Source: Schmidtea polychroa (Eukaryota). From it: a stretch of 64,000 nucleotides of DNA. Under the pieces are notes generated by a model that was not told the DNA's origin, did not search any database, and worked only from the letters and a program-made list of their open reading frames with translations. Position 1 is the stretch's first letter, and each line of letters begins with the position of its first letter. Positions 7,501 through 46,200 of this stretch are shown here, piece by piece. The stretch is from positions 59,520,001 through 59,584,000 of the forward strand of contig CM097886.1 in assembly GCA_044892525.1 (NCBI GenBank), written 5' to 3'. The position numbers and the translations under genes were made by a program.

Positions 7501-10500
7501 GGAATGATTGGATCGCAGCTGTAATAGGTGATATTTTTGACAAGAAGGATTTCCCAAAATTCCATTGTGAGGCGCGATTTGTAGAGAAATCGAGAATATT
7601 GTCTGAAATCTTTTGCTCAAAGTTTTGATTGATATAATTGAGTTCGAATTTATCTACTTGAATTCCCTTCATTTCTGATTGAGTAACGAGACCTTCTGAA
7701 GGTGACACAAGTGAATAAGGGGTATTAGTAGATTTGATACAAAGATTTAAAGGCTCAATAATTGGGGAAGACTGAGAACTGATGTTGTAAATATGTTTCA
7801 TATGGGACTTTTTGATATGACGAATAAATTTAATTTTTGATCGAAATTTACAGTTGCAAAATTTAAAAATGCAATACTTTAGTTCTTTCTTGTTGACCTC
7901 ATTGCAATTTCTAAAAAGAAGAGAATAATTAAGTCATCATTCACTTAAAGATACATTTCAACATGAATTTTAACTTAGGCATAAGTTGCGGAAATGAAAA
8001 TTTGAAGAAAGCATATTATCTTTATATGAAAAGGCGCATTTTACGGTAGCAAAATGATTATTTTTGTAAAAAATAGTCAACTAATATATTTTATCTTTAT
8101 TTCATTTTCGCCTATTTAGTCTATTTAGTCTATTTAGTGAACTTAAGCAGTGTGAAACTTCCATATGTGGAACAGTCCATATGTTTAAAGATTTTAAAAC
8201 AATTATCAGTTGATAAGAACTTTGATCAAATTAAATAAAAATGATTATTGAAGGTAAAATAGAATATGCGATAATCAAAAAATCAACAAAATTGTCTAAA
8301 ATTAGTGATTAAAAATTAAAAAATATATATTTAGAATCATTTTTTCTATTAAAGCGCTAGGCATTTGTTGCACCGTTTCAATATTTCAAGTTTCATTAGA
8401 ATAGAGTTAATATTTAATAGTTAGTTCCAGACTAACATTATCCTGTTTGAAGCCATGGAAAAAAACCCCATATCCATTTATTATTATTTAATAACAAAAA
8501 AATTTCATATTCTATATAAATTTATAGATTACGATTTTTAAATTAAAGCAAAATTTTTGTTCTGTGCAAGTCAACGACCACAAAGTAACATGTTTGATTG
8601 ACAAGGACTATCGTATAGTCGAAAATTCTTTCATTAAATACATTATTTGCAGCAAAAGGCTTAAATTATCATTTTATTGTTTTAAATAATAAATGCTGCT
8701 ANNNNNNNNNNNNNNNNNNNNNNNNNNNNNNNNNNNNNNNNNNNNNNNNNNNNNNNNNNNNNNNNNNNNNNNNNNNNNNNNNNNNNNNNNNNNNNNNNNN
8801 NNNNNNNNNNNNNNNNNNNNNNNNNNNNNNNNNNNNNNNNNNNNNNNNNNNNNNNNNNAAAAGTTGATCGATGAATCTGAAGTGCATTGAAGAATGCACA
8901 ATTTCTGCACAATTAATTTGAATTAAAATGGATTTTATCTGAATAATGGAGTGATTTTATTTGTTGGTTTCCCAATGAGAAAATTAAATTTCTGTTTGTT
9001 TGAAATTTTCTATCGTTTGAAAATGTTCCCAGTTGAAGGAATCAATTACGTGATTAATGCATACAAATGTTGGTTAGTGTGAGAAATGGGAAATTTCAAT
9101 ATTAATTTCCCCAAAAAATAATCGATCGATACCGATGATTGATTGAGTTGATTTATTTTTAGATATCACTATGAAGGAATCGCTTCTTTTTCTGAATGCC
9201 TAATTTACTTTCAAATTATGCGCATTATTTCATTAACATAAATTGTGTTGGTACACTTAAAAAATTTGGATTCTAATTCTATAATTAATGGCATTTGTAG
9301 AATTTTGGAATGCCTGAAAGCTTCCATCATTTGGGGAGCAGCAATTGTGGGATTTTCCTGTTAAGTGCGCTTTATTAATATAAAATAAAAAATTATCATT
9401 TTTTCATTCAATAATATTTTCTATTTTATAAATTCTTGATAAAATTTTATTAATAATTTAACAAATAAAAACCTTTTTGATTTTATACCAAAAAATTCGA
9501 TTTTCAATCTTCAAATATATTCTAATTTGTTTGCTTTAATTTTACTTTTAAAAACGTATTTTTCTATTTGTGTAAATAAATTTTTTGAAAAATTGGATAA
9601 TGTTGTCATTTTTTGTGATTTTATTTTTTTGGTAAGTTTTTTCGATTTTGTACAGAAAGGTAATATGAAATTGACAAAATGTAATATTTAATGAATATTA
9701 TTATTATAATTTATTTCCGTCTTCTTCGCCTTTGATTCGCTTATATTTACAATTTAATTCACCTTTATTCCGTTTTTGAATAAAGATAAGGAGTTGGCAA
9801 ATTTATGAGATGAAGGAGCCAAACTTATCTCTCACAACAATTAAAAAATAAATATGTTTTTGCAATAAATAAAAATATAGAGTAAATTTATAGCAAATTA
9901 TAATATTAAATTTTATTTTTTTATTAAGTGAAGAAATAATTCAACAAAGAGGTACATGTGGCTTTCAAGTCGTTGTTTGCTGATATCCCTGCTATAATTT
10001 TAACTGACAAATTGACCTATATTTACAAATATTTAATCTATTTTTTTTATTTAAAATAATTTAAAATAAATTTATTGTTTTATGAATAATTTTAGAGAAC
10101 TTTGCTTTTCTTAAAACAAATTTATTTTGGTCTTTATGAAAAATATTGAAAAGGATAATGCACTCATCAGCTTTTAAAATTCATGATAGCGTATATGTTA
10201 ATAATATTCAAAGCAATAAAGTTTTGGTGAAGACATCGGTATTATGGTTTAATTTCAATTATATTAAATTAGTAAACACCATGCTGTAAAGTCACAGTCA
10301 AAAACTGAGTCTATTGAAGTCCATAATTTAATGTCATGTAACAGGATATAAAGGAACAAGTTCCGAAGACAAACAACTATATAGGAAGCAGATTGACTCA
10401 GAAAGTAGCATTAAATACATAAATATTAATTTATGCTACGATATGTGGCATATACATCAATTAAGAAAGATGTTGGTAATATTTAGGTTGAATTCATGTT

Positions 10501-16500: not shown

Positions 16501-19500
16501 ATTTTACTCTGAAGGTGGATGGTACCAAAGATCGAACAGGGACTGAGAATGTATCGATTGCCATAAGGTTTGTCTCAGCAGGACAACCTCAGGAGCACTT
16601 AATCTGCATTTCCCGAACAATTGCTCTCAATGCAGAGGCCTTCACAGATGTAATTTTGACAACCTTGAAAGAGGCTCAGTTGGATCCTAAAAATATAATT
16701 TCCCAATGCTATGATGGAGCCGCTGTTATGTCTGGACAGCATGGTGGGGTGCAGGCCTTGCTTCAGGAGCGTCTACAAATAGAAATTCCGTATGTCCATT
16801 GCTTCAACCACAAGTTGCATTTGGTTGTTGTGTGTGCCGTTTCTGAGTGCCAAAAACTGCGGGACTTCTTCGACATATGCAGAAACTTATACACATTTTT
16901 GTCATATCCTAAGGTTGCGGCCATATATCAAGGCGATAAATTGACACGGCTCATGGAACATCGTTGGACAGGACACTTGCAGACGACTCAGGCAATAACA
17001 ACTAATTATGATACAATTGTGAATTTGCTTGAGATGTGTTCTAGTAGACATTCTCACTTTTCAATTGATATTCAATTGGAAGCTACTGGACTCTTGCATC
17101 GAGTCAATGAAGTGGAGTTTCAGTTCATTGCACACATGGTGCTCTCATTGCTGACTATCCTTGAAACAGCCAACAATAGCTTGCAGGGTCAAGCAATGGA
17201 CCTTTCTTCAGCATTTGATGTTATGGATGCCGTCATAGAGCGCATTCGCAGCCTACGCAATGAAGAGGAATTCCAAGTTCTTTTTGGGAAATTCGAAGGT
17301 CAAATGGATATGGAACAGACACCAAAAAGAAGAAGAACTCAGATGAACTCAAAATTAGACAACTTCATTGTGTTCGGATCTGTGGGACACCAGAACACCA
17401 GGCCTTGCCTATCAGATGCGCATATCGCCAGATGTATTACGAAGTCGTTGATAGGACTCTGCAGGAACTAACAAAACGCTTCGGTGTCACCAACAGAAAA
17501 CTTTATAAGTCTCTTGCATGTTTGAAAACTGATCACGCAAACGTTTTGAATATTGAGGAGCTAAAGACTTTAGCGACACTGTGTGGCGTGGACCTAAGCG
17601 AAACCCAACATGAATTTGAAACTGCAAAGGTTTTCCTATTGAAGAGAGCCAGTACTGTGACAAACGTTCATCAGTTAGTGCAAGAACTGTACTCATACCG
17701 AGATGCTTTTCCATCTGTCTATCGTCTTGTAGCTTCTGCACTGACAATCGGTGCTTCAACTGCCACATGTGAGGCGACTTTCAGTACTTTATCTCGTGTC
17801 TTAACTCCCTTTCGTACGTCGATGAGCCATTCTCGTAAAGCCAACCTTGTATTGCTCTCATTTGAAAGTGACATCAGTAATAACATCAAATCTGATTAGT
17901 TTCTTCGGCGGTTTCATGAAATGAAAAATCGTCGACTGCAGCTATTTTGAGTCATGTCGATATCTCACACACGTAATTTCTTTTTTCTGGATCTAGTTCC
18001 TGTGTAATTTCTATTGCACTCACCTTTAGTTTTCAAATCTGTGTGACTGTGTGTTCTGTCTTTGTATGTCCAATTGTCCGTCGTGCAAATACATGCAGCT
18101 ATTTGTTTTTTGTGTTTGTTCCTAAAAAATGTGCGAAAATCATTTCCTATATACTAGAATATGCAATAATGTAGCAAAATAATGCTCAGACAAAATGTCG
18201 ATTTTGCTTTCCTTTTTTTTAAATTGAACATTTCGGAGAGCAAAGTGTGAGTAGTGACTAGTCTGTTTTCATAAAATACTTAGTTTACACGAGAATTACT
18301 GGCCCCTTTAATGAGAGTCTGGGCCCCCCGTCAAAAGGTGTCACGGTACGGGGCTGGCTTAATACTTTTCTTTTTCTTTATGAAAATTAACGATAGGGCC
18401 AATTAAATTGACAAAACGGCTTAAGACATTGTAGATGGATAACCATCTTAAGAGACAATAAAAAGGAAACATTTCTATCAATGAAAGCATAATCTTCTTC
18501 CCATTCAGATTTATAGCTTCGATTTTCACTGAGATCCATATAATATAATTTATTTTTTGAAATTAAAAATTAACGATATTTCATTAACATTGGCTAGAGC
18601 CGCATTGAAAAAGTAAAGAGCCACAGTTTGGTCATGTATGATATATGATATTAGAAAAATGAAGATAAAGAAAAGAGAAAATAGTTAGTCGATGGTGAAA
18701 AAGATAAAAGGTTTCATTGGTAAATTTAATATTAATATTTATTCATTCAAATAAGTTTTTTTTATTTTTCGATAAGTGGTATAATTTTTATTTAGTCTGT
18801 ACTATTGAATCTATTGAAGAACAAAGTAAAAACTGTAAAGCGTCAATTAGTAATTAACCAGGACTCCTAAAAAGGGAAATATTTGCGATAAATTACTTCC
18901 AAAGTTATGAATTACAATTTAAAAGTTAATATCAGTAAGAATTATATGTCCTTGCTGTCAGTTTGATTAAGAAATAATCCTCTTCAATCTTATCTGAGGT
19001 TTATCTACTGTTATAATTTTAACACTTGAAACATCTTTTTCCATTTACTGAATTTGGTGACTGTTCTTGAAAAAATATCATTATTCAAATTATTTGAGTT
19101 TGGAAAGTTGTTTGTTTTAATAATATTAGATTTAGCGTGTTTTTGGAAAATATATTTTTATTGCATTTACTATTGATTTATTGATTTTATGAATTTAGAA
19201 GTTGAAGACATCATAACTGGCGACCACGCCAAGGAAATCAATGCGATAGGAAAAAAGAAAGGAACTAAAAATATGTTAGATTCCTTGTCAAAACAAGCAC
19301 GTGAGATGCTAAATTTTAATGTAAGAAAGTTTGACGGAAAAGTCGGATCTGAAGCCGAACTTTGGCTAAAGGATATTATGGAATGGCTGAGAATAGAAGA
19401 TCAAAGTCTAGTAGACGCATTGGATCTTTTATTGACAGATGCGGCATCGATGTTATGGGAAGCGGCGAAAATAGCGAAGATGACCGATGAAATGGCAAAA

Positions 19501-22500
19501 GAGTGGTTTATAGAAACTTTTACAGTAAGGAAAACCATTACTAACAAGATTGTGGAACTAGCTCAAATTCAGCAAGAGAGAGATGAAAGATTCCAAGTCT
19601 TCGAAATACGAGTAAGAAGTTTAGTTAAAAGTGTATTTAGCTCTGGAATGTCTGATGAACAGATTGTTCGAGACATTATTTCAAACAGACCGAAAGACGA
19701 TAGAGTAAAAGAAATATTCTTATCAGGGAAAGTGACAAGTTTTGAAGATGCCAGGGATATGGCAAAAATTCAGGAGAAGATCGAGATGACGAATGACAAT
19801 AAATTCAATATTGATGCCATAAGAAGAGATTCTTACGCATCAGTGATGAAAAATGGTAAATTCGAGGGTAGACGAGACCAAAGAACAATTGTGAAGACAA
19901 CTGCACATCAACGCGACGATCACCGGGAGATTAATCATGAGAGGAATAAACCTGGTAATGGTCGGTTTGTACTAATTGTAAATGAAGACAAGAATGAAAA
20001 TGAGCGGTATAGAGGACGATATGAGACAGGAGAACCAGAGAGAAGAATACCTACAGTATCGCTTAAAGATATTGCAAGAAGGTTATTTAATGACAGCAAA
20101 GGAAGAGATTCGCCTCATCCAGTGAAACTGACACCAGGTCAGTGTTTTTGTTGTGGAGAAAAAGGGCACCGGCGTTTTGAATGTCCTATGAAAGACAAAT
20201 GTCTAATCTGTGGAAAAGAAGGTCATGGATTCAGAGATTGTTTTTTGCTTAAAAATAGAAATGGATATCAGAAGAGAGTGGCATGTATTTACGAAGAAGA
20301 TCACGAAAGAAATAATGGTGATTTCACAGAAGATTTATACAGTAATTACGAAGAAACGATAAAAAAATCAATGGATAAACCAAAAAACAAGGACGATCCC
20401 ATTGCTTTCATTTCGTCAGTGGGGTCGACACAATAATCAGTAGAAAGAAGCGAAATGAAGACATGATGCAGAAGATGTATGAAACGACAGACAGAAGAAA
20501 GTGGAGTAAGATTGTATAAAACATGACGGTGATTGACATGCTTTGGGACTCTGGAGCGTCAGTATCAGTTATGAGTGAAAAAAGTTGGACAAAGATTGGG
20601 AAACCGAGGTTGAAGCAGAGCACAATTTCTCTTTGTGGAGTATTTTCGACGGGAATTGAAAGACCGTTAGGAGCAATGACGATAGAAGCTGATTGGAATG
20701 GGAAAAAAAGAATTATTAATGTTATAGTTGTCAGAGATATACGTCCAGATTTCATTGGGGGTGTAGATACAATGGAGAGATTTGGTATTCGACTGGTAGA
20801 GGTAGATAATATTGAAGCGTCACAAGTAGGGAGGACATATGTGAACTCACAACGAGAAGAGAAAGCATTATTAATGCTTGGAGACAGGAAGAATGAACAG
20901 TTAGACATATTGCTACGGAAGTTCAAAGGTATTTTTATGGCTTCAACTTTTGATCTCGCGTTTACGAAAGTTGTTCAACATGAAATGAATATAGTAAGTG
21001 GGCCTGTAATGTTACAGCCAAGAAGACAACCAATGCATTTAGAACAAAAGCTTGACGAACTTGTCACAAACTTATTAGAAGCGATAGTTTTTAGAAAATG
21101 CAAAAGTGCATGGAACGCGCCACTAGTGATTGTGGCTAAGAAAGATGGATCAATAAGGATGTGTGTCGATAATAGAGGGTTGATTGCGATCACTGAAAAG
21201 ATATCTTTTCCAATGCCAGATACACGATTTCTACTGGATTGTCTGGCAGATTCAAAATATTTCACATCCATCGATCTAGGTCAAGTATATTATCAAGTTG
21301 GAATGGCGAAAGAAATTCAAGAGGTTACGGCTTTCAGTACAAGGCAAGGACAGTTTTGTTTTAACCGACTTCCTTTTGGACTAGCAACCGCCCCTGTGAC
21401 GTTTCAAAGAATGATGCACTCAATGTTGGATGGAATATTATTTAAGGGTGTTGTTGTCTACCTCGACGACATTCTTGTCTATGGAAAAGACAAAGAGGAA
21501 CACAATAACCGATTAGAGGAAGTATTCAGAAGAATTCAACTAGCGGGGTTGAGAATTAACCCAGAAAAATGTAATCTGTATAAAGAAGTATTGACATTCC
21601 TAGGGCACACTGTAAGTGCAAGTGGGATAAAAACGAACGACAAGAAGATTAAAGAGATTCAAGATGCAGAAATACCAGTATGCGCCAAACAATTAAGATC
21701 CTTTTGAGGCATGACCAATTACTATAGGAAGTTTATAAAAGACTATGCGAAAATTGCGGAACCTCTACATGCAGCTACATCCGGCTGTGAGAAAAAGATT
21801 AATTGGTCAGAAGATTGCAACAATAGTTTTGAATTACTTAAAACAAAGTTGTGTGAAGCTCCAATTCTAGATTACCCAAGAATGGATAGAAACTTTATTC
21901 TGGATACAGACGCTAGTTTTGGGGCCATCGGAGCAGTTTTTTGTCAAGCTAAATATATCAAGGATATCAAGGATTAAAGGGATGTTATGTGCACAATGCC
22001 AGACTAGATATAGTTTAATTTTCTGGTGTAATATCTCTCTATGTTCGATCAGTTTGATTGGACTAGTTAAATCAGCGTGAACTGGAAAGGGCATAATAAT
22101 AAATTCTTATAATTTCTTGGTAACATCATGTTGTAAATGATATAAAATGAGTAAGAATTGTAAGTCTTTGCTACGAGAATTTGATACAAATATTATTTTT
22201 ATCTAATTTAATTTTCTTAATATTTGAGATTTAAATAGTTTGAATATTAATATTTTGAAAGTGCATACATCAAGAACATCAAAATTTAGATATTTAATTG
22301 GAAATATTTCAGCTTATATTGAAGAGGATTATTTTATAATCGGTCAATCTCATTTATAAAATTTAAAATATACTGGTACCAATAAAACTATGACTTTTAA
22401 TTTTTAAAAAAATGTTTACATGTGGCACTATGAACAAGTTGTAATTATATTCAAATCTTCGTCCATAACAATTATAACAATTTCTTTAATTACAAATTCA

Positions 22501-25500
22501 AATTCACTCAATTTGTTTTATAATATTCAAATAGCTGAGACATTTGTAATTTTGACATTAGTGCAGATATTGGCTACAAATAATTTTTCGTGATTTTAAT
22601 ATTATATGTATAAAAATTAAATAACTATTTTAATGATTTTTAATTTATTTTAAACTCTTTATTATTAGAAATTTTTACTATAATATTAGTTTAATATTAA
22701 TATTACTATAATATTAGTTTATAATTTACTATATTATTAGTTTACTATATTATTAGCAATTTATAGAAAATTTTAAATTTAATTTTTAAAGAAATCTTTT
22801 TTTTCCTTCTTACGAAATCTTGGTAGGTCTCGGTTATAAACTAATATTAAAGAATGAAATATAAAATATAATTACCTAACATGAAGAATCAGATTCCTAT
22901 TGATTCTCCAAAACACTCTCATACATTTTCTGCATCTGACACTATAATTCCATGAGCGCTCTAAAAATTTCAACACATTTTCATTTTTTGAACGTGTATA
23001 AACATACTTTCAGGCTTTCTACGACTATTTAAACAAAATGCCCGTTTTTCCAAATACTTTTGAGTTTTTCTGTGATTTTTTAATGAAAAGAATTTAAAGT
23101 AGTCAAACTTCTAATTAATTAATTAATTAATTCAATAGTAAATAATTATATAACCAAATTTTTTGTGAATATTTTTTTGGGACTAGAATTTGAAGGTAAA
23201 AACGGAACACTTGGTATAATTTGAATGGGTTTCGATGGAAACAAATTCAAACTGTCTGAACCTGATTGATGTAAAAATGAGAAATCACCGATGTTTAACG
23301 ATAAAAGGGGAGATAGAAAGTTCATATTGGCTGGGAGGATAGTTTTAAACAGTGGTTCTGTGATTCTCCGATCAACTAAGCCCGAATTTGACAACATGAA
23401 ACTGGAATCTGACTTTTTGTTGTCAAGCCTCAACGGGTCACTGGTTGTATCTTTTCTGATTGGCTTAGTGGATTTTTTGATTTTACTGGTTTTAGAATCA
23501 TTGGAACCATTTTGTGATGACTTGGCATTTTCTGTTTGATGCTTTTTAAGGACTTCATCAATGCTTGATTCAATTGTCTCGTTGTTGTTATGAGATGTTT
23601 TTATATGTCTACTCAAGTTCCCATTTGTTGTAAACTTTTTGTCACACATAAAACAACTAAATGGCCGATGATCTAAACACATTAAGTTAAATTTTCAATT
23701 AATTTTTTTCAATATATGAACTTGAATGAGTCAACAAATGTCTTTCCAGAGAGCTATTGGAACTCAATTCCTTTGAACACAAGCAACATAAATGTTTTCC
23801 ATCATCGCGTTTCGTTTTGTTTTGATGTTCTTGTAAATGAATAGTTAAACTTTCTCGGCCACAAATATACGATTGATCACACATGGGGCATTTGAAAAAG
23901 TCGACTCCTCCACTCGTTTGAAATGGAAGTATCTATAATATTAAATGAAACTTTGAGATAATAGAAGTACTTTGTTGAGGTTAAAAACTATTTAATTAAG
24001 ATATTTTAATTGAATTTGAAACGAAAAAATTCAATATATTTCGGGAGGAAGATGTTAAAGAAGGGATTCATTATTAAAATAAGTGCCTATATGTTAAGTT
24101 TTACGTAACAGACAATGTTCATATAAAAAATTCATTAATTAATTAATTAATTAAAAAATTGTTTACCTCATCAATTATTGTTATAGAATAAAGAAACTCA
24201 CTATTTAGCAGCGAAGAGATTCAATTAAAAAAATGTTTAATTTAATTTATTTATTTTTAGAAAACGCAAAAATTAGATAGAATTAAAAGGGATAAAACGA
24301 CTTGATTGGGAAAATTAAAAATAAAATAGGAAAATTGTTTTATGAAAAGGCATTCGAAATTTCCTTTTAATGCACCACGGTCGAAGAAAAATTGACCATA
24401 ATGTTGTGTGGCAGTTCAAGATTTATAAGCTTGAGAATAATCTACCATTAAAATGTTCAAAAAATTCTGACCTGAAATTCTGTAAAATCTTTGGAATACG
24501 TCACCAATTTTATTGGCGAGATTTTAGATAAGAGGATTACAAAAACATCGTTAATAAAAAGTAATATGCCATGTTTTCCATTTAATATTCTCTTAAAACA
24601 CATGAAAGTATGCTTCGTAAGATAAAAAAAGTAAGCACAGAATCAAAGAGAAAATGTCCTTGTAAACTGACGTCAATGAGAGTTATACAAAGCATTTTCA
24701 TGTAATGCAATTATCTTTTTAATGCATTTATCAATCTCTGTAAGACCCTAGCAAAAGGAAAAATAAAGAGCTCAAAAATTTTATTTTTCACAAGACTGGA
24801 CAAAATTTCATCCATATTACTAGTATTCTAGAGATACATATTAACCATCAATATTTGATATTTAACTAATTTTTTTAACCAAAGTCTATCAGAATCACAA
24901 ATTTTGAGCACTATATCCATGTATGTGACTGTTAAGTTATGTCGTTTATTTCTTTAGGTACATTTGATTTATAAGGGCAGAAACCATATACTAATATTTA
25001 TTTGAGATGAAAGCATGAATACAATTTGTAGTGTCTGAAAATACAGAATTTATCCGCGGAAGTGCTAAAATATAAATGTATATGTATTTTTTTCAAACTT
25101 TACCGCTGATTTCTTTTCCACTGTATTTATTAAAAAACCTTGACTATGAATCAGTAAATATATCGATGTTTTTGATATCCACCAACTATCGGCACTGCCT
25201 TTTTCACTTTTTCAAGCTTTTTTAATATATATCAATTCAATTGTATTAATTTTATATTAATTCTTAAAATTTTTTGCAGGCCAAAATATTTGTTTACTTG
25301 GTTCTTACTTTCCCCCACCTTGATCATACTAACGTGGTTAATATTGCACAGAACCCCCTGAAACTTATAGCTTTTTAGGAATTTATATAAATTTGTGATA
25401 TAGAACATATAATAAAGAAAGAAAATTCTCATAAAAAATATGCAAGAAATTTATTATTAATTTATAAAAATGATTAAAATCCGTTTTATATGGTGTTTAG

Positions 25501-27881: not shown

Positions 27882-27953
<72 letters not shown>
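27882..27953. repeat. (TTA)n microsatellite, ~24 units, abutting the inverted Penelope 3' end
   Basis: Directly visible. Confidence 0.97.
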
Positions 27954-27955
<2 letters not shown>

Positions 27956-28041
27956 AAATGATGATTGCTTGGTAGCAGCATTTATTATTTAAAACAATAA
28001 AATGATAATTTAAGCCTTTTGCTGCAAATAATGTATTTAAT

Positions 28042-28080
28042 GAAAGAATTTTCAACTATAAGATAGTCCTTGTCAATCTC
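28042..28080 (-). ncRNA. Hammerhead ribozyme family A, inverted-arm copy
   Basis: Minus strand reads GAGA-TTGACAA-G-GACTAT-ctt-ATAGTT-GAAA-AT-TC-TTTC, with a G.U closing pair in stem II. Confidence 0.7.
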
Positions 28081-28680
28081 CTGGAATTTAGCAATGTTCT
28101 TCCCCAAAATATTTTTCAATCTTTCTTTTATTTCCTTTCTCTTAATTCTCATTGGTTGAAAATATAATGAATTGTTTTACTAAAAACTTTTAAAATTTTT
28201 ACATTTAAAATTTCAAAATGACACAAATTAAAAAATTTTTAAATTTTTTACAGCTTCTATAATTAGCTTCTAGAAGCCTAATAAAATATTTGAAAATATT
28301 TTAAATAAAGCCTCCAATAACTACTTATATATGCTATTTAAATATTTCAATAAATGTGTCAATTTTGATTTTCAAACCCTATTTTTTAAAATTTTTTTTC
28401 TATATTATTCTAATTATTACTTTTTAATTTATTCTATTTTTTTAATTTTTTTAATTTTTTTAATTTCTTTATATATTGTCAGTTATTCTCAAAGTCAAAG
28501 TCAATGACAACAGATCAAATTCATGATTTCATTGATTTCTTCTTTAGTGTTGATCTTTGGCTGTCTGTTTATGATGAGAATTGCTTCTTTGATTCTGACA
28601 TTTTTCTTTTGGATGTTTCCATTAGCTATGATTTCTATTGAAATATTTTTTCTTTCCTCTGTTGGCTGACACTGCCGGAG

Positions 28681-29778
28681 ATGTCTGCCCAACGAGGATG
28701 TTCCACCTTTGAACAAAATATCAATAAACAAGTGAAAGGTCTGCCTATGGGTTCTAGCATATCAGGACTGCTAGCAATCATCTTTATGGATAACCTCGAA
28801 CGACAGACACTGAGGACCATACAACCCATCGGTTTCTATGCAAGATATGTAGATGATATCTTCATCACGACCAAAAACAGAAAAGAAGCGGAGGAAATAT
28901 TTCATACATTCAATGCGGCTCATCAAGATATTAAGTTCGAAATCGAATATCCGGAAGAAGATGGATCCCTCAATTTATTGGATTTGAGAATCAAAATAGA
29001 AGAAAATACTCCAACATACGGGTTCTACAGAAAACCAGCTCGCAAAGAAATATTTATGCACCAAAGATCAGCACTTCCATACTTACAGAAAGTACATGTC
29101 ATAAGAAACGAGAAACGAAGAATAGCCAATCGATGCACGGAGAAAAACGAAAACTTTAAAGAGCAATCAAATTTCAATAAAATCCTACACCGAAACGGAT
29201 ACCAAGGTGAGGACATTGAAAGAATGAATTCTACCCCAAGAAGATCTAGGGAATTATCACAAAAGAATCAGAAATATTTCTATCTGAATATCCCATTCAT
29301 CAGTGACATACTCGACTTCAAGATCCTGAAAGAACTTAAACGTACCGGTCTTCCAATTCGGATAGCACATAAATCTTGGACATTGAGAAGGGCTCTGGCA
29401 GGCAACATAAATAGAGAAAACAATTGCACAATGAAAAACTGCCAGACACCGAAAGATATGTGCTTTAGAAAAAACATCGTCTATTGCATCACGTGCAATG
29501 TATGCAATGAAATCTACATTGGAAGTACCCTCAGGACATTGCACCAAAGAGTTAAAGAACATCTAGATCCTGGTGGAACATCCTCGTTGGGCAGACATCT
29601 CCGGCAGTGTCAGCCAACAGAGGAAAGAAAAAATATTTCAATAGAAATCATAGCTAATGGAAACATCCAAAAGAAAAATGTCAGAATCAAAGAAGCAATT
29701 CTCATCATAAACAGACAGCCAAAGATCAACACTAAAGAAGAAATCAATGAAATCATGAATTTGATCTGTTGTCATTGA
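28681..29778 (+). CDS. Penelope-like RT C-terminal half + GIY-YIG endonuclease (the first 9 codons come from the inverted arm)
   Basis: GLPMGS, RYVDD, LNLLDL, YRKP; VYCITCNVCNEIYIGSTLRTLHQRVKEH; RIKEAILI...PKIN. Confidence 0.9.
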   Translation: MSAQRGCSTFEQNINKQVKGLPMGSSISGLLAIIFMDNLERQTLRTIQPIGFYARYVDDIFITTKNRKEAEEIFHTFNAAHQDIKFEIEYPEEDGSLNLLDLRIKIEENTPTYGFYRKPARKEIFMHQRSALPYLQKVHVIRNEKRRIANRCTEKNENFKEQSNFNKILHRNGYQGEDIERMNSTPRRSRELSQKNQKYFYLNIPFISDILDFKILKELKRTGLPIRIAHKSWTLRRALAGNINRENNCTMKNCQTPKDMCFRKNIVYCITCNVCNEIYIGSTLRTLHQRVKEHLDPGGTSSLGRHLRQCQPTEERKNISIEIIANGNIQKKNVRIKEAILIINRQPKINTKEEINEIMNLICCH

Positions 29779-30180
29779 CTTTGACTTTGAGAATAACTGA
29801 CAATATATAAAGAAATTAAAAAAATTAAAAAAATTAAAAAAATAGAATAAATTAAAAAGTAATAATTAGAATAATATAGAAAAAAAATTTTAAAAAATAG
29901 GGTTTGAAAATCAAAATTGACACATTTATTGAAATATTTAAATAGCATATATAAGTAGTTATTGGAGGCTTTATTTAAAATATTTTCAAATATTTTATTA
30001 GGCTTCTAGAAGCTAATTATAGAAGCTGTAAAAAATTTAAAAATTTTGAAATTTTAAATGTAAAAATTTTAAAAGTTTTTAGTAAAACAATTCATTATAT
30101 TTACAACCAATGAGAATTAAGAGAAAGGAAATAAAAGAAAGATTGAAAGGTATTTTGGGGAAGAACATTGCTAAATTCCA

Positions 30181-30221
30181 GGAGATTGACAAGGACTATC
30201 GTATAGTCGAAAATTCTTTCA
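30181..30221 (+). ncRNA. Hammerhead ribozyme family A (U3-A8 core), Penelope 3' UTR
   Basis: Stem I GAGA/TTTC, TTGACAA (30186-30192), 6-bp stem II (30194-30208), GAAA (30209-30212), palindromic AATT stem III, UUC cut site after 30216. Confidence 0.8.
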
Positions 30222-31478
30222 TTAAATACATTATTTGCAGCAAAAGGCTTAAATTATCATTTTATTATTATTATTATTATTATTTAAAACAATAAAATAA
30301 TAATTTAAGCCTTTTGTTGTTTTAAATAATAAATGCTNNNNNNNNNNNNNNNNNNNNNNNNNNNNNNNNNNNNNNNNNNNNNNNNNNNNNNNNNNNNNNN
30401 NNNNNNNNNNNNNNNNNNNNNNNNNNNNNNNNNNNNNNNNNNNNNNNNNNNNNNNNNNNNNNNNNNNNNNNNNNNNNNNNNNNNNNNNNNNGATAAACAG
30501 AAAAAGATTTTCATTATAATCAAAAGTTAACTTGTTAATAGGACTACATTTCGTGCCTGTGACATTTCTCAAGTTCGGCTTCCGTCCTGAGGCCGAGTAC
30601 TTGAAGAAATTTGATTTCTTTTTCGTCAAGCCTGTGTTTAAAATTCTGGTATTTATTGATTTTTTTGAAGGCTTTTGAAATATAATATTTTTTCTTTAGA
30701 ATTTTTATCTTCGATTTTATTTCTTTTGGATAAATGAATTATTAATTACATGTTTATTAATATTTTATATTTCAATTTAATCTTTTTTCGGTAGAAATAG
30801 ATGTCTATCAACCCAGACGAATACGTTCTAATGACTTACATATATACTTGCAGCCAGTATTACCGGTTAATAGAAATAAGTTGAAAGCGAGGTATTTTGT
30901 CTGCCAAACATCTACCAACAGTCAATGAACGTGATAAATTCTATTAACTTTTACGCAATAAATATGTTATCAGAACGACAATTTGCAGATTATGAACTTC
31001 ACCAGTTATAAAGAACCTTTTTAGTAAAAGGCCCAAATTCAAAAAAAAATTACTCAGCCGGACTCAGAAATTTTAATTGCACTTTGATACATAATAATAT
31101 AAAGCAAATCATGTAATGTAATAATAGTGAAAAGTTGGTTTTAGAAATTATGTGTTTTTCTGGAATTTAAATTTTAATTTACAAAATTACATAAAATATT
31201 TTCCGAGGGTCGCATGCAAAACATCGTTTTTAGATTCACTAATTTTTTTTCAATCATCTCTATCTTTTCCTTTCTAGTTAAATCTTTCTTGTCTTACTTG
31301 TTTCTATGTTTTCTAAGAAATAGAACGATTTAGAAAATTTAAAATATTTTTTTTTAAATCAATTCACAAAATTAGATTTTCATTATTTTAAATTTAAATG
31401 AATTTTCAATTTTTTAAAAATTTTCTCTTCAATTTTGTTAAATTTTTGTTATTCAACATTAAGTCTGACTCTGACAAG

Positions 31479-34021: not shown

Positions 34022-37000
34022 TTATAAAAATAAGTCATTCTTGTTGCGAATAACATTTCGACAAATGTGACAAGTCTTCAGTCGAATTGAGCAATTCCGG
34101 CATGAGGTATGTCCGCAATCGAAGGAAATGTTGACAATATTGTCCAGGCAAACACTGCAAAGCTGAAATAATGGAATGATATAATTTGACATTAATTTAA
34201 TAAAGAAAAAACTATTAAAAACACATTTTTGTTTTCTTCGCTTTTAGATTTTCTTTCCAATTCCATTTTGTACAATTTTGACAGTTTTGACTTCAAATCT
34301 TGATGTCGACAATTCTCAATTGATTTCGTTAGTGACAAATTTTCCTGGCTCGATAACAAACTTTTAGATATGATCAGTTTCGATAATCTTTCAATCTAAA
34401 TGAGTAAGGCAATTTTATAAACTTTTATCTTTTGGAACTTGTGAAAAAATACAATTTAAATAAACCAGTTCCAGTGTTTATTAATTGAATATTTTCTATC
34501 TAAATTATCTACTTTTAACTCCAATCCGAAATTTAACCTATCTTTGCAATTTTATCTTTCTTTTACCCTCTATTCTCATGTTTTCTTTATAGGCATTGTA
34601 ATGTATTATTATATTTTATTTTTTTTATTTGTCCTAATTCAATGTGAGTTACAATTTTGCTCGTTGCACGTGGAGAAGAATTTTTTCTTTTTTTAAAAAA
34701 AAACTATATAACGAATGTTAGAAGCTATAACATTTAATTCTTCTGTCATCAAAATAAATTACTAAGACTATTAAATCCAAAATTATATTTCATTAAATCT
34801 GATTAAATAAACAAATATTCTTGGGACATTTTCTAAATTTTAATTTCAACCAAATATCAACATACCATCGCATTCATACTTGAATTTCAATTTTATTAAA
34901 AATTATTTTATTTTAAAATTTCAATTATCATTTCAATTTTAATATCTTAAAATAATTTAAGTTTCAATTAAAATTTTACAAATTTTAATCATGAACTAAT
35001 TTAATTTAGTATTTTAATTTTAACTCCTCACATCCCCCTTTTTTAAAATGTTTGATCTTCTCAACATTTCTGACTACCATCTTCCCATTTTGATCTTTAA
35101 GTAAGTAGCTCCGTTCATGTATTTTCTTTATCACTTTGTACGGCCCTTCCCACCTTGCATCGTCTTTATTTCGAATTTCTTGTTTGATCAAAACCACATC
35201 TTCCATTTCAAAATCTCTCACTGTTTTGCTTATTTTTGGTTTTAGTGTTTTATCCTCTATTCTCTTTTCCATATCTTCTCTATTTATTTCTTTATTCGAG
35301 TACCATTTCATTCTGTCGATTTTCCTCCCAAATATAATCTCTGCTGGGCTTACTCCCGTTGTTTTTTGAACTGTTGCATTTAAAGTATATTCTATTTCTG
35401 GCACTATATCAGCCCAGTTTTTCCTTCCTCCTTCATTCAATGACGCGTTAATATACTCTCTGATTGTTCTGAATTGTCTTTCGTGTTATGGTGATATGGG
35501 CTTGAGAAAATTAATTCAATGCCAGCTGCCTTTGCTAGTTCTTTTATACTTCTTGCTTCAAAGTTCTTCCCACAATCTACATGAAGTTCTTTTGGAGCTC
35601 CAAACTTTAATATCCATTTATTTAATAACGTCTCACTAATTGTTTTTTCGTCTTGCTTGTTTATGGCCGTTAATGAGATGTATTTACTATAGTGGTCAAT
35701 GATTCCGCAAATATATTTCTTTTTGTTGAACGTTTCTTTCAATGGCCCACATATATCCATATATATCTTCTCGAATGGTTCTGTACTCTTTATTGTTTGA
35801 GTTTCCTCCTTTGTCTTGGTTGTTATCGTTTTCATTTTCTGACATCTTTCGCAGTTCTCAATTACCTTTTTTACTTCCGTTGCTAAATTTTCCATGTCGC
35901 AGTTATTCTGGATATATTTCGTTACTTTCTGTGCACCTGCATGGCAAAGTAATACGTGTACTTCTTTTATCATCCTCTGTCTATTATCTGACGGTATCCA
36001 TATTTTACCTTGCTTAGTTAGTACCGTGTTGTTTTCCATTATGAACTTACAATCTTTATTTTCTAACTTATTCTTTATTTCTTGGACCTCCATATTGTCA
36101 TTTTGCCACTTGTTATATCCGCCTTCTGCTGTTACTGTTAATATTCTGGTTTTAATTTTGCCGGTTTTTGGGTCTTCGTGTTCCATCATACACTGTACAC
36201 ATGTTCCGCATGTTTTCCTGGATAGCATATCCGCGTTTGTATGGCTTGTTCCTTTCCTGTATTCCATTTTAATATCCAGGCTGCTTAAATAGTTGATCCA
36301 TGTCTGGAATTGAGCAGTTATTGGTTTCTTCGTTGTTACCATAAACGTAATAGCTTTATGGTCCGTTCTCAGTACGAATCTCTTACCATATAAGTAATGG
36401 TTGAAATGTTTACAAAAATAGTATATTGCCAATAATTCTTTTCTGGTAATGCAGTATCCTTTTTCGTGGCTGCTCATCGCATGTGAACCATATGCAATGA
36501 CATGTTCATGTCCTTTTTCATCCTTTTGCGAAAGAACTGCTCCAATAGTATCGAAGCTCGCGTCTGTGTCTAATATAAATTCTTTTCTGAAATCTGGAAA
36601 TACCAATACTGGGGCGGTTATCAATGCTTCTTTCATTTCCCCGAAAGCCTTTTCACACATCTCTGTCCATCTTATTTTCTCATTGTTTTTTCCGCATATG
36701 CTTTCTAGTGCTCTTGCCTTCTTTGCATAGTCTTTTATGAACCGTCGATAATAGTTACAGATACCCAGAAAGCTCCTCAGATTCTTTACACATTTTGGCT
36801 TTTGAAATGATTGTATTGCTTCTATCTTAGTATTATCTGTTTGTATGCCGTCTTTATTTATTATGTGTCCCAGAAACTTCACTTCTTTTCTAAATATTTG
36901 ACATTTTTCGGGGTTCAATCTTAGTCCTGCTGTTGCGATCTTCCCTAGGACTTTTTCAAATATGTTATAATGGTCTTCTTCTGTCTTTGTGAATATTAGG

Positions 37001-40000
37001 ATGTCGTCTAAATATACCATCACTCCATCTTTCCACAAATCTTTCAATACTTTCGTCATTAATTCTTGAAATGTTCCTGGTGCCGCTGCAATACCGAACG
37101 GCATCCTGTTAAAACAGAACTGTCCTTCTTTTGTTGAGAATGCTGTTTTCTCTTGAGATTCTTTATCTAACTTCACTTGGTAATAAGCATTTCCCAAGTC
37201 GATTGAGCTAAAATATCTGGATCTGTGTAGGATGTCTAAAATTTCATCTACATTTGGCATTGGAAATGCTTGTCTTTCTGTTATCTTGTTTAATTGTCTG
37301 AAGTCTAGACAAAGCCTGATGTCTTTTTTCTCTTTCTTCCATACACAAACTAAAGGTGTGTTCCGCGGTGAATTACACTTCCTAATTATTCCGTTGTTTT
37401 CTAGATTTTTTATTTCTTCCTCAATCTTGTCTTCCAAATTTATTGGCTGACGTCTCGGTTTAATCATTATTGGCTCTCCTTTCGTGATGATCTTATGTTT
37501 TATCAGATTGGTACACCCAATGTCCCATTTATCTGCCATAAAAACATTCTTGTTTGCCTGAAATATTTCTAACAGTCTCTTATTTCCGGTAACCTTTAAA
37601 ACGTCGATGGCATGACGTAATCTTTCTTCATCTGTTATAATCCGCCAAATTTCGCAAATGAAATCACTACGTTTTTCATGTTCTTCTATTATACATTTCA
37701 ATTCTATACCAAATAACCTTTGTAGTTCTACTCCTCCAATAATTTCTGGTATTAAATTCTTTACTATAATGAATGTTACATTTCTTTCAATACTGCCCAT
37801 TTTAACATTGATGCTTATTTTACCCATAGTTTCTAATCTACTGTTGTTTGCACATCTTAGCGATTCCCTTGTTTCTAATATTTCGATATTTTCTAATCGA
37901 TCAATTACAGATTTAGCCATCACATTAATTCGCGCTCCTGTATCCAATAAACAATCTACTTTCCGCCCTTGGATATCCAGTGTTGTACTCGGTCTACCTT
38001 GCATTATATTATATGTTATTACTGGACTTTTTTGTTCTTCTACTGACAAAATATTCTGCTCTCTAGTATCTTCTACAATTTCATTAATACACACGTCTCC
38101 ATTTTTCTTGAGGAATTTGTAAATTTTCTCTATAGTTCTTTCCTCGTGTTTTACTAATTCATTTACTTTACACTCCTCTTTAAATTTTTTCTGAATTTCC
38201 TTATCATTCGACTTTTTGATTTCTACACTACTATTATTATTAATATCACGTTCAAAAACACTACAATCTTTATCAATCATACAATCATCATACATACTTA
38301 AATTACACATACCGTTAGCATTCATTCTTTGGTTGAAATCAATATTACTTAGTAAATTGCTCCGATCAATGTCCCGTTTGACGGAGCGTGCTCGTTTGGG
38401 TCATTCTCCCTGTTATACTCGTCTGGCTGGCTTGACTGTTTTGTATTCATCATCTCATCATCAGACTCGATAGCTGCAATATCTTTTCTGTTATATTGTT
38501 GGTTTCCCCATTGTCTTTGATGTACGTTCCTTGATTGATACATATCTTCCCTTTGTTGATAGGTATTTCTTTGAATTCTTCCTCCTGACATCTTCCTTTG
38601 GTCTCGATCTCTTCCTTGATTTCGTCTTTCCATATTTGTGTAGCACTCTCTTTCTTTGTGTCCTCGTGCATTGCATCTATGACATTTGATTGTTGGGCAT
38701 TCTCTTCGTATGTGACCTTCAACACCACATGCATAACATTGAAATCTTCTTTTTATATTACATTCTCTGCTACTGTGTCCCGGTTTTTGACACGTCCAGC
38801 ATTCTATCACTTTAATTCTTGTCTCTGGTTTCCATTCGTTGATTTTTCTCTTCGTGGCTCCAACTTGTACTACATCTCTATAAGTTCTTCCCCCAGTTGT
38901 AGGTCGTATTGATCTCACCGTGTTTACTTGTTCAATAACCTTGTTTTTTTCTATCTTCTTTATAGTTTCTTTAATTTGTTCCGCCGTTTTGAGATCTTTC
39001 ATTTCGATTTCTTTCCTGACTTCTTTATCTTTTACACAATGTGTCAATAAACATTTCTGAATTTCTTCCTCATTCCAAGTGTGTGAGGCCAATTTTTTAG
39101 TCATTTTTGATATTTTCTCTATAAATATTTCCGCTGATTCGTTACCTTGCTCGTAGTTCAAGGCTTCTCTTAAGTCATCAATCAATGACGTTGGTCGATG
39201 AAAAGCTGCTCTTAATTTCTGTTCAACGGTTTTACCTTCTGCGGTTTCATATTCTTCAATCAAAGTCCTGTCCAGAAGTGTAATAACTAGTACCATTTGG
39301 GTCTTCACTGGTGTCTTCGTTATTTCAAAGAACCTCTGACATTCTTTGATAAATAATTCGAGGTCATCTCCTCTGTGGAATTTTTCTGGAAGTAATCTTC
39401 CAATAAGCAGATCCGTTGGAATGGTCGCCATGTTAGAAGCTATAACATTTAATTCTTCTGTCATCAAAATAAATTACTAAGACTATTAAATCCAAAATTA
39501 TATTTCATTAAATCTGATTATATAAACAAATATTCTTGGGACATTTTCTAAATTTTAATTTCAACCAAATATCAACATACCATCGCATTCATACTTGAAT
39601 TTCAATTTTATTAAAAATTATTTTATTTTAAAATTTCAATTATCATTTCAATTTTAATATCTTAAAATAATTTAAGTTTCAATTAAAATTTTACAAATTT
39701 TAATCATGAACTAATTTAATTTAGTATTTTAATTTTAACTCCTCACAACGATAATTTACCATAGTAAATTATCGCTATAGAAAATTGAAGAAAATAAAAA
39801 AAATCAATTGAAAATTCAAAACTAAAGGAAATTGAAAAGATTATTTAAAGATATACCTGAAAAGAACATTTTTATTAACAATTATATATTCCTGAAAAGA
39901 TCCTTTGAATTAAAAGGAAGACGATCAAACATCCTAGAAAGATTATTGATATATATTTGTATCCAAGGAAAACTAGAATATCATTGAAGACATTATTTGT

Positions 40001-43000
40001 ATCCAAAGGAAAACAAGGTTGATTAATTAATTTTATTTCAATAAAAGTTGAGGTTAATGTTTCTGTTTATTTACCTTATATAATATATTTGTTAACTGTC
40101 AGTATATACAATATATATATAACATACACGCACGCCAACTGTCCCAAACAATTATTTTTGCGGAGACTCTGTTGGCCTCTACAATTCTCCTCTAGACAAT
40201 ATAACCATATCACCTTTTTACTGAATAAGTCACTTAACAGGCATAACAAAATATAAATATAAATTATAAGAACTTTTTTTCAAATTTCACCACTGATTAT
40301 TTTTTCCATTGAATTTATTAAAAATAGAATTTGAAGACTATAAATCAGTAATATATTGATGTTTTCTTAAACAATAAGACATGTAATATAATCAGAGCTT
40401 ACATTCGCAATATGGAGTTGCCAGTTCATATTCGCGCAATTTTTACAACTGCTGCACCTTTTAAAATCACAGCTTCGTAAGTCTCAAAAATCTCTAACAT
40501 CGAGATTGTATATGCCAATCCTCCACCAAATGTTTCTGCTTCTCAAAAAACATTGTATACCAAATCACTTGCACAAGATGTGACGCATCGTAAATAGGCG
40601 AAACACTTAGAACGTTCCAAAAAAGACCCAACAAACACATCAAAAACAAAACCAGCAATTATCACGACAACTGGAAAAAAGTGCACAAATCAGCACCACT
40701 CTTACACGAAACAAAATGCAAAATATTACAAGATGCGTTCAAAAATACATTACAAAGATTAGCCGCAGAAACTCTGTTTATCAAAAAACTTAAACCCTCC
40801 ATCAACATTCAACTAAATTTAAAAAAATCCCTGGAGCGTTTATTTGAATTTGAATTAAATATTAAAAATATATAAAATTTAAAAAAAGCCGTTTTTTAAA
40901 AAATAAATTTGTTTTTCCACAGCAATAAGGGGTAAATGCAATAATGATCAAATTCACTTGAAAAGGCAGTGCCGAAAATTCGAGAGTATCAAAAATATTG
41001 ATATATTACTGATTTATAGTCTTCAAGCTCTCATTTTAATAAATATAAATATTTTAAAACAATATTTCGACACCAGGCATTAAATATATTCTATATAAAC
41101 GATTATATTTATAGTATTATAAGAACTTTTTTCGATTTTTACCGCTGATTTCTTTTCAATTGACACTGTAATGATTCATAGTAAATTTGACAAAGGCTAT
41201 TTTTTCATTTGTTATAAATATATTTTTCGCAGCAAAAGGCTTAAATTATCATTTAATTGTATAATATTNNNNNNNNNNNNNNNNNNNNNNNNNNNNNNNN
41301 NNNNNNNNNNNNNNNNNNNNNNNNNNNNNNNNNNNNNNNNNNNNNNNNNNNNNNNNNNNNNNNNNNNNNNNNNNNNNNNNNNNNNNNNNNNNNNNNNNNN
41401 NNNNNNNNNNNNNNNNNNNNNNNNNNNNNNNNNNNNNNNNNNNNNNNNNNNNNNTTAATAACAAAATATAATATATCAAAATCATCAATTGCAAACCTCT
41501 TCAGATATGCTGATGCTGTTGATCAATATGGAAAATGCCGTGTTTCCCTGAATGTCTTCCTTATTGATATCATCAGCAATATACAACATATTCTCTAATA
41601 AACCATAAAACTCGTTCCTTGCTGCAATGTGCAAACCGGTTTCTTTGGCCGAGTTCATTTGGTTAACTAACACACATGCTAAATTCGATTCTATTAGTAA
41701 TGAACAAAAGTCTTGTTTATGCATTTTCAAGAGAGACGTGAGAAGAGTTTCCCCATTTTCGAGCAACGTCAATTCGCATTTCTCCTCTTCACAGAGCAAC
41801 GTAAATATTTCCTTGTTATTATTCAAAGCACATTGATACAAAAGGCAAGCGGTGCATTTAAATTTCATATCGGGATCTGATAGAAACCACAACGAATTAA
41901 AAGACTCTGTCGTTCGATTTTTCAAGAAAAAAATCAACATTTCCCTATCTATAAACTCGTTTGCTTTCAAACAATTCGGCAGAACGATTTCTAGAATATC
42001 GATCCAATTGTTATCCATGATTATCTTCAAATCCTTCCTCGACAATTCGATATTTTGTCGATCGTGTGCAATTAAATGGATGAAACTAAGATTTATATGA
42101 TGTCACCTGTGATTGGTTAAATAAATATTTTACTCAACATTTCTAAACTCAAGGCAATCTTGGAAAATCGAACGCCCATCATTATTTGTAATGTTGATAT
42201 CGGTCTGATGATCGAGTAGCAACTTGGTAATGGAACAAATGTCGTTTTCCATCTAAATTTCATCGTTAGAAACGAGACAATGAAAATTATTTCACACCTG
42301 AGGCATGCGGTACCAATTAAATAGCACCATTTCATGTAATGGAGTATTACCGTTACAGTTAATGATATTTAGGTCGGCATTTAGTTCTATCAATGTACTG
42401 CAAAGTTTGTGCGAGAGAAATTTGGCTGCCAAGTGAAGCAAAGTATTTCCCTCCTGGGATCAAATAAATGATTACACTAATAAATAGCTAGATTTAACTT
42501 CATCCATTTCATTTATATCAGATACATTCTGTATCATATCGATACAGTATTTACTCATTCCGTTCTTGATAGCACTGTGAAAACTGTTCTTTTCTNNNNN
42601 NNNNNNNNNNNNNNNNNNNNNNNNNNNNNNNNNNNNNNNNNNNNNNNNNNNNNNNNNNNNNNNNNNNNNNNNNNNNNNNNNNNNNNNNNNNNNNNNNNNN
42701 NNNNNNNNNNNNNNNNNNNNNNNNNNNNNNNNNNNNNNNNNNNNNNNNNNNNNNNATTTTCTTAATAAAATCTTGAAGCATTCGATTCTTCCAGTGACTG
42801 CAGCTAAATTCAATGGTGAACCAACTGCCTAATGATGTGAATATATTGAAAACAAGGAAAAAGGCAAATAGGTACGTACTGATATCGCATCTGTCACAGA
42901 GTCTTGATTAGTTTTCATTAAGTGTTTAACCATTTCTAAGTCGTTATCATTAACAGCTATATGCATTCGAGTCCAAATAGCCTATTTATAGTAATATATT

Positions 43001-44136: not shown

Positions 44137-45689
44137 TAAATTTTCGATAATAGTTTGTTTCTTTGCAAAATTCATCTCCGATTCCATTACAGAATTCAAC
44201 AAACTTGATAATTTAATTTAAGCAAATATTTTCAGATATATAATTAGAAACATCACCATATGATGGACAACCCTCAGTTACATTTTCTAAATTTTCATCC
44301 TCGGCATTATCATTTTCATTAACTTTAACTTCTAATGTAACTTATCACCATTATCTTAATTTCGGTTGTACGTACACAAATAACATCTTTATTCGTTACT
44401 TATTATTATAAATAGTATGTAACTAATTATATATTATTGTAGTTATTCCTTAAATTGGGATTAACAATGTGCAAAAATATAAAGGATAAATCATATTAAT
44501 AAATTCTGTATTCTGAATTATTATTCGATTTTTTTGTATCGAAGCCTTAACTTTTATTATTTATTTTTATTGTATGTACACGAGCTGTATTGATTTAAAA
44601 ACATCTAAAATATGACTATTAAATTTGTATAAAAAATTATCAAAAATTACTGAATAATAAAAATATTGTAAATTATAAATTCCTATTGGTTGTTTAAATA
44701 TTACTGTAAAAAATGGAGTTATTTTAAATAAACGTTTTGGAATTTTTACCTTTGTTAAACAGAAATTGTATTTAATATTTTTAAAATCTTTTATATTTTT
44801 GTTCACATTTGATCTATTTTTATTTTCATTTACTTTCATTACGACAACAGATAATTTTTACGTTTTTCATATCTTTCTGAAAAAAAGTTAGCTAGAATCA
44901 TAAAGAAAATAATTGAAATTTTTTAAATAAGTGTTTTGGAAGTATATTGGCTATTTATTAAGGCGCGTATTTAGTTAGCATTTGTATATATTTTGATTTC
45001 TAAAGAACTTATCATGTTGTTAAATTTTATTCATTCCAAGAATAATAAATGGATATGATATGGAAATACTAAAAGGCAAAAATGTGTGATTTTGCAAAAC
45101 ATAGCGAGAAATTAAAAGAAAGCTTTCAAAAAAAAGTTATGTATTATTTAAATCACCTTTGTAGTTAGTGGATATAATCAATCATAGAAATCTTTTAATA
45201 ATGAGGTTGGGAAATGTTTATGAGGCCAGTCTTTTTCTAATTGACCGTACGCAATATTTGGAATTAATATGCTTCTATGAATATTTATCAAAGTAAAATA
45301 TATTTTTTTCTAAAAACTTAGTTATTTCTTTGAGAAAATAATCAAATCCTGCTTGTGACATCATGTTATAAAAAGAATAAAAGTAAATATTTTACAATAT
45401 ATTATTTCCATTCGTACATCTTTTTCACTATATATTTCGATAGCATCACTATTATCATCAGGTTACCTACATTCACGACGGATGAATATATATATAAACA
45501 AATTATAAAATATATAAATTTTTAATTATAAATAAAATTTTTTAATAATCATTCCTTTTAAAAACAATTTTCATTAATAAATTATATTTAAACTTAAAAT
45601 TATTAAAAATATTTTTTTAATTATTTAACATAACTATTATTAATATACATCAACATACAAAATCTTAATTAAAAACATTCAACACACAC

Positions 45690-46200
45690 GTTCTGCACGT
45701 TTTTGATTAAATGTTCTTATCAATAATGCTTCGCATATCACACGTTCAAAACAATTATCAAATTTTTTGATAAGATTTTAAAATCAGACATTCCTAATTC
45801 TCTCATACAGACTTTATTGTGATCCTTAATATTAAACACTCCCTTCGGTCGACTGTGTTCTTGAACTTGAGTACATAGATGACGGGAAGCCTCTCCAATG
45901 TATGTGGCATTACACCCATTACATGTGAATTGATAAACGAGATCCGAACGCAATCCAACCGGCGTTTGAGATTTACTAACAAACATACTACGTACTTTGC
46001 ATGATTTTGAAACAATTCTATAATTCAATGTACCCAACTGTTTACCAATCTTTCTTTTGAAATCTTTATATCCTTCAGAATACGGCAATACCATCGTATA
46101 TTTTGGCTCATCTTGTTTGTTAGTATCAATATTCATATTCAGACATATTCGATTATCAGTCAATTTACATTCATTCATACTACGATCCTTAGCATTACTA
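45690..46200 (-). mobile_element. Penelope-like GIY-YIG fragment
   Basis: VLPYSEG...LVYQFTCNGCNATYIGEASRHLCTQVQEH...DFKIL; a shifted frame continues ICEALLIRTFNQ. Confidence 0.85.

Follow-up and report, generated by a model that had tools for sequence, protein, structure and literature searches.

A minimal type I hammerhead motif with a U3-A8 core pair at both ends of a young Penelope-like element family in Schmidtea polychroa

The motif at 30186-30216 raises two questions: whether a hammerhead that carries U3-A8 in place of C3-G8 in its core is still a self-cleaving ribozyme, and what part it plays in the element around it. We approached both from the window, by which we mean the whole stretch of 64,000 nucleotides that was analysed, and from the genome (781 Mb) to which it belongs.

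The 31-mer motif was matched three times in the 64-kb window, compared with no match in any of 100 shuffles, and a separate descriptor scan of both strands recovered the same three copies and none other. The parts of the 30186 copy are as follows.

30182..30220, + strand: minimal type I hammerhead motif, with core U3-U-G-A-C-A8-A9, an extra G, a 6-bp stem II and GAAA
30182-30185 (GAGA) with 30217-30220 (TTTC), + strand: stem I, 4 bp including one G-U
30186, 30191, 30192 and 30193, + strand: U3, A8, A9 and the extra G
30194-30199 with 30203-30208, + strand: stem II, 6 bp
30209, 30212, 30215 and 30216, + strand: G12, A15.1, U16.1 and C17
30212-30215, + strand: the palindrome AATT (stem III); predicted cut after C17 (30216)

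All core boxes (N3-UGA-N-N8-A9, GAAA and U-H) are present in the window copies, and two further marks of the type, a stem I of only 4-5 bp and a minimal stem III that is palindromic, are found here as GAGA/TTTC and AATT. An unpaired base between positions 9 and 10.1, together with a G10.1-C11.1 pair, occurs at 30186 and 8598, with G-U at 28046. The original prediction had named a minimal type I architecture, a U3-A8 swap, an AATT palindrome and a UUC cut site, all of which were borne out. Its statement that the three copies share one sequence holds for 8598-8628 (+) and 30186-30216 (+), which are exact, but not for 28046-28076 (-), which differs at two bases: the loop reads CTT, and C11.1 is changed to U, giving a G10.1-U11.1 wobble. 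The 4-bp stem I that it assigned to the 28046 and 30186 copies was confirmed by the descriptor scan, while stem I is 2 bp in the 8598 copy, where homology starts at 8596. The three copies are members of one young repeat family and are thus not independent.

The motif by itself is inconspicuous. An Rfam scan returned no hammerhead family match up to E 5 and the monomer folding energy was not above that of shuffles (z -0.37), so that the case for a hammerhead rests on position and comparison. Both results would also suit a chance look-alike in an AT-rich repeat, and one look-alike lacking a stem II, located within PLE coding sequence, is common among loose U3-A8 matches. Against this, the motif agrees feature by feature with the published min-HHR consensus, for which the available text of PMC4209133 (Cervera and De la Pena 2014) gives an unpaired base between 9 and 10.1, G10.1-C11.1 and a palindromic 15.2-16.2, and its place at either end of the unit is the one that PLE hammerheads occupy. 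Position and the comparison with sister families described below already contradict chance, which we regard as scarcely credible.

The surroundings of the motif were identified as those of a Penelope-like element (PLE). The 30186 hammerhead lies 407 nt 3' of the stop codon of a 5'-truncated copy encoding reverse transcriptase (RT) and a GIY-YIG endonuclease (EN), and the following features belong to the same family.

28705..29778, + strand: 5'-truncated PLE ORF with the RT end, a Cys-rich linker and the GIY-YIG endonuclease, corresponding to the 3' part of an 856-aa ORF
29779..30181, + strand: non-coding pLTR, from the stop codon to the hammerhead; 30180 is the upstream edge of short-copy 5' ends
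30217..30269, + strand: tail after the cut site, running into the (ATT)n target; in full-length copies it is the 5' UTR of the next unit
27952..28707, - strand: partner copy in inverted orientation, truncated at its 5' end; it carries the hammerhead 28046-28076 and is flanked by (ATT)n at 27882-27954
8596..8701, + strand: short stub that starts 2 nt before U3 and consists of the hammerhead (8598-8628) and then the tail

Pfam detected RVT_1 (E 2.8e-10) and GIY-YIG (E 6.2e-6) in the ORF, and unnamed homologues showed ~40% identity. Between 28705 and 30284 the window matches the full-length copy L265 at 95.6%, and the stub 8596..8701 is 100% identical to positions 641-746 of L265 and belongs to the class of copies whose 5' end lies shortly upstream of the cut. 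The 30186 element and its inverted partner have (ATT)n on both outer sides. An acceptor-like AG (30180-30181) marks the border between pLTR and hammerhead. This layout of pLTRs and an inverted partner matches the description of endonuclease-bearing PLEs in the available text of 10.1101/2021.04.23.441226, and the marks of an EN+ PLE (partial-tandem pLTRs, an inverted 5'-truncated partner and a tail) are present, as are the domain matches and full-length copies with an intact ORF on which we base this assignment. The RT-EN linker has C-x4-C-x6-C, which is only similar to the CX2-5CxxC quoted in the same text. A non-LTR retrozyme, consisting of non-coding head-to-tail tandem units with a hammerhead in each, does not describe these copies, which occur as scattered stubs, as pairs placed head-to-head or as coding units of 3 kb.

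The window holds further traces of the family and several other repeats. An older rearranged copy with ~85% identity and inverted pieces lies at 10645-12165, where no hammerhead motif was detected, and the short palindromes or stubs at 48877-49039, 56141-56307 and 41199-41268 consist of diverged PLE tail only, with apices near the cut site. A Gypsy-type LTR retrotransposon occupies 34715-39747 (-), with long frames for gag and pol and with 318-bp LTRs that are 99.7% identical; another gag-pol, in degraded form, is found at 19177-21707, and a frameshifted hAT-like transposase, judged by translation alone, at 15610-17899. A dispersed short repeat family forms inverted pairs (25068-25227, 40255-40366, 40950-41185, 57367-57514 and 58257-58481).

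The genome-wide pattern search that the original prediction had called for gave 2,346 U3-A8 matches, compared with 8 in the reversed control. The downstream tail anchor was found in 5,010 copies (3,055 + 1,955), and the upstream pLTR, with one mismatch allowed, in 1,666, a genome-wide contrast in agreement with the mapped 5' ends described below. For full-length loci, we searched with the 5' end of the ORF, viewed the upstream sequence in 30 loci and took whole six of those that had an upstream hammerhead (L265-L270). The identical motif stood at both ends in 6/6 of these loci, the 856-aa RT-GIY-YIG ORF was intact in 5/6, and the motif-to-motif spacing was ~3,075 nt in 5/6; the unit measures 3.1 kb. 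In full-length copies the ATG follows the cut site by 64 nt and the 3' motif follows the stop codon by 407 nt. The predicted association with a PLE is thus upheld by the RVT_1 and GIY-YIG ORF upstream and by the motif at both ends of full-length copies. Since the motif flanks the ORF on either side in these copies, and the ORF is intact in five of the six, U3-A8 is the state of an active PLE family, not decay. An upstream ATG frame (30111-30269; L179:1100-1275) passes through the hammerhead and, in frame with the main ATG, ends with TAA TAA immediately ahead of it; an RNA starting at 30180 would not include this upstream frame. In data presumed to be RNA, one of four runs covered 29/29 bins from pLTR to ORF, with no joints, these being contigs that cannot show ends, strand or cleavage.

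Copies of the U3-A8 family (family A) among the matches listed are near-identical and vary mostly in the stem II loop; family A stems with G8 are rare there (~5/100 among the matches listed, over 90 Mb). The same genome holds C3-G8 relatives. The C3-G8 pattern gave 3,792 matches, compared with 60 in the control, and its main families likewise have an additional base following A9, a G10.1-C11.1 pair and, as stem III, a palindrome (ATATAT). Several of these hammerheads sit downstream of PLE endonuclease remnants, including one in the window.

45431..45461, - strand: minimal hammerhead with the canonical C3-G8 and with A in place of G10.1, from a second PLE family, ~280 nt after an endonuclease remnant
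45738-46202, - strand: the endonuclease remnant of this second family

Positions 3 and 8 form a Watson-Crick pair in both cases, U3-A8 at both ends of 6/6 full-length loci and C3-G8 in the sister families. We then compared families in an alignment (A1) of 26 rows picked by hand from the hammerhead matches and representing few related families. In it, 86.8% of cells pair, compared with 22-51% in slid structures, and both-sided changes occur at three of the six stem II positions (CG 14/UA 9; AU 13/UA 10; AU 12/GC 8); the covariation at 3-8 was built in by the search patterns. Given the related rows and this pattern-set contrast, the alignment supports the structure without being an independent measure of it. 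The stem II covariation that the original prediction had asked for was thus seen between families, at 3/6 pairs, but not within family A, where none was seen among near-identical copies; a within-family test cannot work precisely because these copies are almost identical. Generic counts of mismatched cores were not clean (U3-G8 2,799, control 122; C3-A8 688, control 174), and four-way counts of the 3/8 pair were rejected as a test, being swamped by other repeats. The first 100 of the 2,799 U3-G8 matches span 90 Mb of contig C1, so most of them must be clustered elsewhere, perhaps in a tandem array.

To see where copies begin and end, we turned to the first 21.7 Mb of C1, which hold 164 tail-anchor matches. 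Of these, 14 belonging to one segmental duplication were dropped, and the 5' ends of the remaining 150 were mapped. Relative to the cut, 85/150 of these ends lay at -40 to -14 and only 9/150 at -3 to +3; a further 3/150 lay at -120 to -41, 45/150 further upstream and 8/150 elsewhere. Among the 45 far-upstream ends, 15 reach the 700-nt limit, and some at -200 to -121 reflect alignments that failed where the sequence is A-rich or diverged. The cluster persisted when neighbours were collapsed (68/126 events) and among the 107 copies with an exact tail, 67 of which begin in it and 2 at the cut; seven of the nine cut-site ends belong to diverged copies. At the other side, 3' ends cluster at +56 (24), +64 (30) and +92 to +98 (54) in the 150 copies, 113 of which end at (AAT)/(ATT) repeats. 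In the C3-G8 families, 6/14 loci of one and 0/8 of another ended 16-56 nt before C3, too few loci to establish the same edge there.

These ends bear on the proposal made in 2014 that efficient cleavage produces the RNA templates of rolling retrotranscription, either at unit length or as circles. The flanking motifs at ~3,075-nt spacing and the existence of partial tandems speak for it. However, copies made from cleaved templates should begin at the cut site, where the ends within 3 nt are far outnumbered by those in the upstream cluster, and we consider this proposal very improbable for the family studied here. The one clean candidate for a cleaved template is the junction at L145:780-1160, where the first 75 nt of the ORF are fused directly to the first base after the predicted cut; a segmental duplication has copied this junction.

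The upstream edge of the cluster, at -37 (30180), recurs in longer copies. The full-length copy L266 begins at -37, and its 3' copy (L266:3320-3500) jumps from ~70 nt after the stop codon, ~20 nt past an AATAAA, straight to -37. In at least 4 of 37 copies, among the matches listed, -37 abuts sequence from inside the element, in sense orientation. On the simplest reading, the RNA would have its 5' end close to 30180 and would serve as template without being cleaved. A G precedes the -37 base in 29/87 5'-truncated rows, by a hand count among the matches listed that leaves out 13 intact-type rows, and genome-wide in 102 copies, compared with 433 non-C matches to a narrower pattern; a cap-derived G is a hint only.

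The -37 edge need not be a transcription start, since it coincides with the acceptor-like AG. Splicing was tried as its cause: the exon upstream of the nearest donor was found in 0/37 copies with AAAGGAGA, and no constant upstream exon was seen by eye in 100 rows among the matches listed. A splicing-related cause may nevertheless apply, with the AG spaced as in Drosophila virilis Penelope. As for transcription, it is possible, though we would stop somewhat short of calling it probable, that the element RNA starts at 30180, six bases before U3, and that RT copies the uncleaved RNA from an internal tail site to that end and then integrates, folds back or jumps to another RNA position, like LTR strong-stop DNA. 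If true, such an RNA start would explain pseudo-LTR regeneration, and the hammerhead would act as an off switch, by cutting away a capped leader of 37 nt, rather than as a template maker. In the literature searched, which covered few subscription journals, we found no published pile-up of PLE 5' ends at the hammerhead.

The scarcity of cut-site ends would also be expected of a hammerhead descendant that is now catalytically dead or nearly so and is kept as a structural, promoter or protein-binding 5' UTR element, with U3-A8 arising by two transitions under A+T mutation pressure. The window has 29.5% G+C, and catalytic mutants do not affect insertion in vitro according to the available text of PMC11167929 (Frangieh et al. 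2024). Modelling points the same way: the productive dimer is predicted at -7.6 kcal/mol, compared with -13.0 for two monomers and -20.3 for a non-productive stem II dimer, in a nearest-neighbour model without tertiary contacts, so that productive pairing would be energetically disfavoured. Yet in the active family every other core position is conserved, and so are the extra base, the G10.1-C11.1 pair, the palindromic stem III and the UH site; U3-A8 hammerheads are stated to be active in vitro in the available text of PMC3088659 (Perreault et al. 2011), which cites other work; and one junction, the segmentally duplicated event at L145, falls exactly at the cut site. We therefore judge a dead ribozyme unlikely.

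With good confidence, we regard the motif instead as the minimal type I hammerhead of a young PLE family, present at both ends of a 3.1-kb unit with U3-A8 for C3-G8, that probably cuts itself after C17, though only slowly, as a dimer or with help from protein, and is probably bypassed in most events of retrotransposition. Two motifs could pair through their AATT palindromes to form stem III, with U3-A8 leaving positions 3 and 8 paired as in the active fold, and cleavage would trim the RNA 5' end or resolve read-through tandem transcripts. The RNA would start ~37 nt before the cut site, and RT would start internally, 56-98 nt after it, and copy the uncleaved RNA back to the 5' end. Internal starts of this kind, followed by copying to the 5' end, would give rise to many stubs of 90-135 bp and to head-to-head palindromes.

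As a ribozyme variant the motif adds little, because U3-A8 in PLE hammerheads is in print. The novelty that the original prediction implied for it does not stand: in 2014, PMC4209133 had already described Schistosoma PLEs with U3-A8, with an additional base following A9 and with a stem III that is palindromic, and natural U3-A8 hammerheads, with in vitro activity cited, appear in PMC3088659. With the swap already published for PLEs, the motif is one more case of something already known. What makes it valuable is its use for testing: the family is young, has intact ORFs and thousands of copies, and shares its genome with C3-G8 families. The in vivo role of PLE hammerheads is called unclear in the available text of 10.1101/2021.04.23.441226, and the insertion ends bear on this role, since they suggest templates left mostly uncleaved and starting shortly ahead of the ribozyme. 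It is the pattern of these ends that deserves an experiment.

The closest published relatives, as far as the available text of PMC4209133 describes them, are the Cercyon PLEs of Schistosoma mansoni, whose min-hammerheads carry U3-A8 (~1,300 matches with a dedicated descriptor). Common to both are a type I minimal motif in the pLTR, U3-A8, the extra base, G10.1-C11.1, a long stem II, a 4-bp stem I, a palindromic 15.2-16.2 and copies that are mostly truncated singles or opposite-strand pairs, both of which that text notes. The family studied here differs in PLE family and sequence and in its palindrome, which is AATT, whereas G/C or C/G occupies 15.2/16.2 in both of the S. mansoni U3-A8 examples listed; being young and homogeneous, it is more like the D. 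virilis case in PMC4209133 than Cercyon. One S. mansoni min-HHR is described there as cleaving weakly, only as a dimer or with an extended stem III, and the single planarian example has C3-G8. The U3-A8 hammerheads of PMC3088659 share the compensatory core pair and, in its available text, are not tied to the minimal PLE type.

Poseidon PAc of Anolis carolinensis offers a second comparison. In the available text of PMC11167929, the PLE hammerhead is helped by protein and is not required for insertion in vitro, RT initiates internally and ATT is the preferred target. The family studied here resembles PAc in having the hammerhead near the ORF start, a tail that ends a short way into the ORF, a preference for ATT targets and uncleaved RNA as the apparent template. 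It differs from PAc, which has C3-G8 and an ORF start inside stem II, in placing its ATG 64 nt after the cut and in its Cys-rich RT-EN linker. Finally, an internal pLTR promoter is a feature of Drosophila virilis Penelope (PMC2377424, Schostak et al. 2008), in which, according to Table S1 of PMC4209133, the intron ends at 491 and C3 lies at 496, the same 4-nt spacing as AG|GAGA|U3 here. In that element transcription starts 125 nt before C3 with the intron between (available text of PMC2377424), whereas the stub ends of the present family suggest an RNA end 6 nt before U3.
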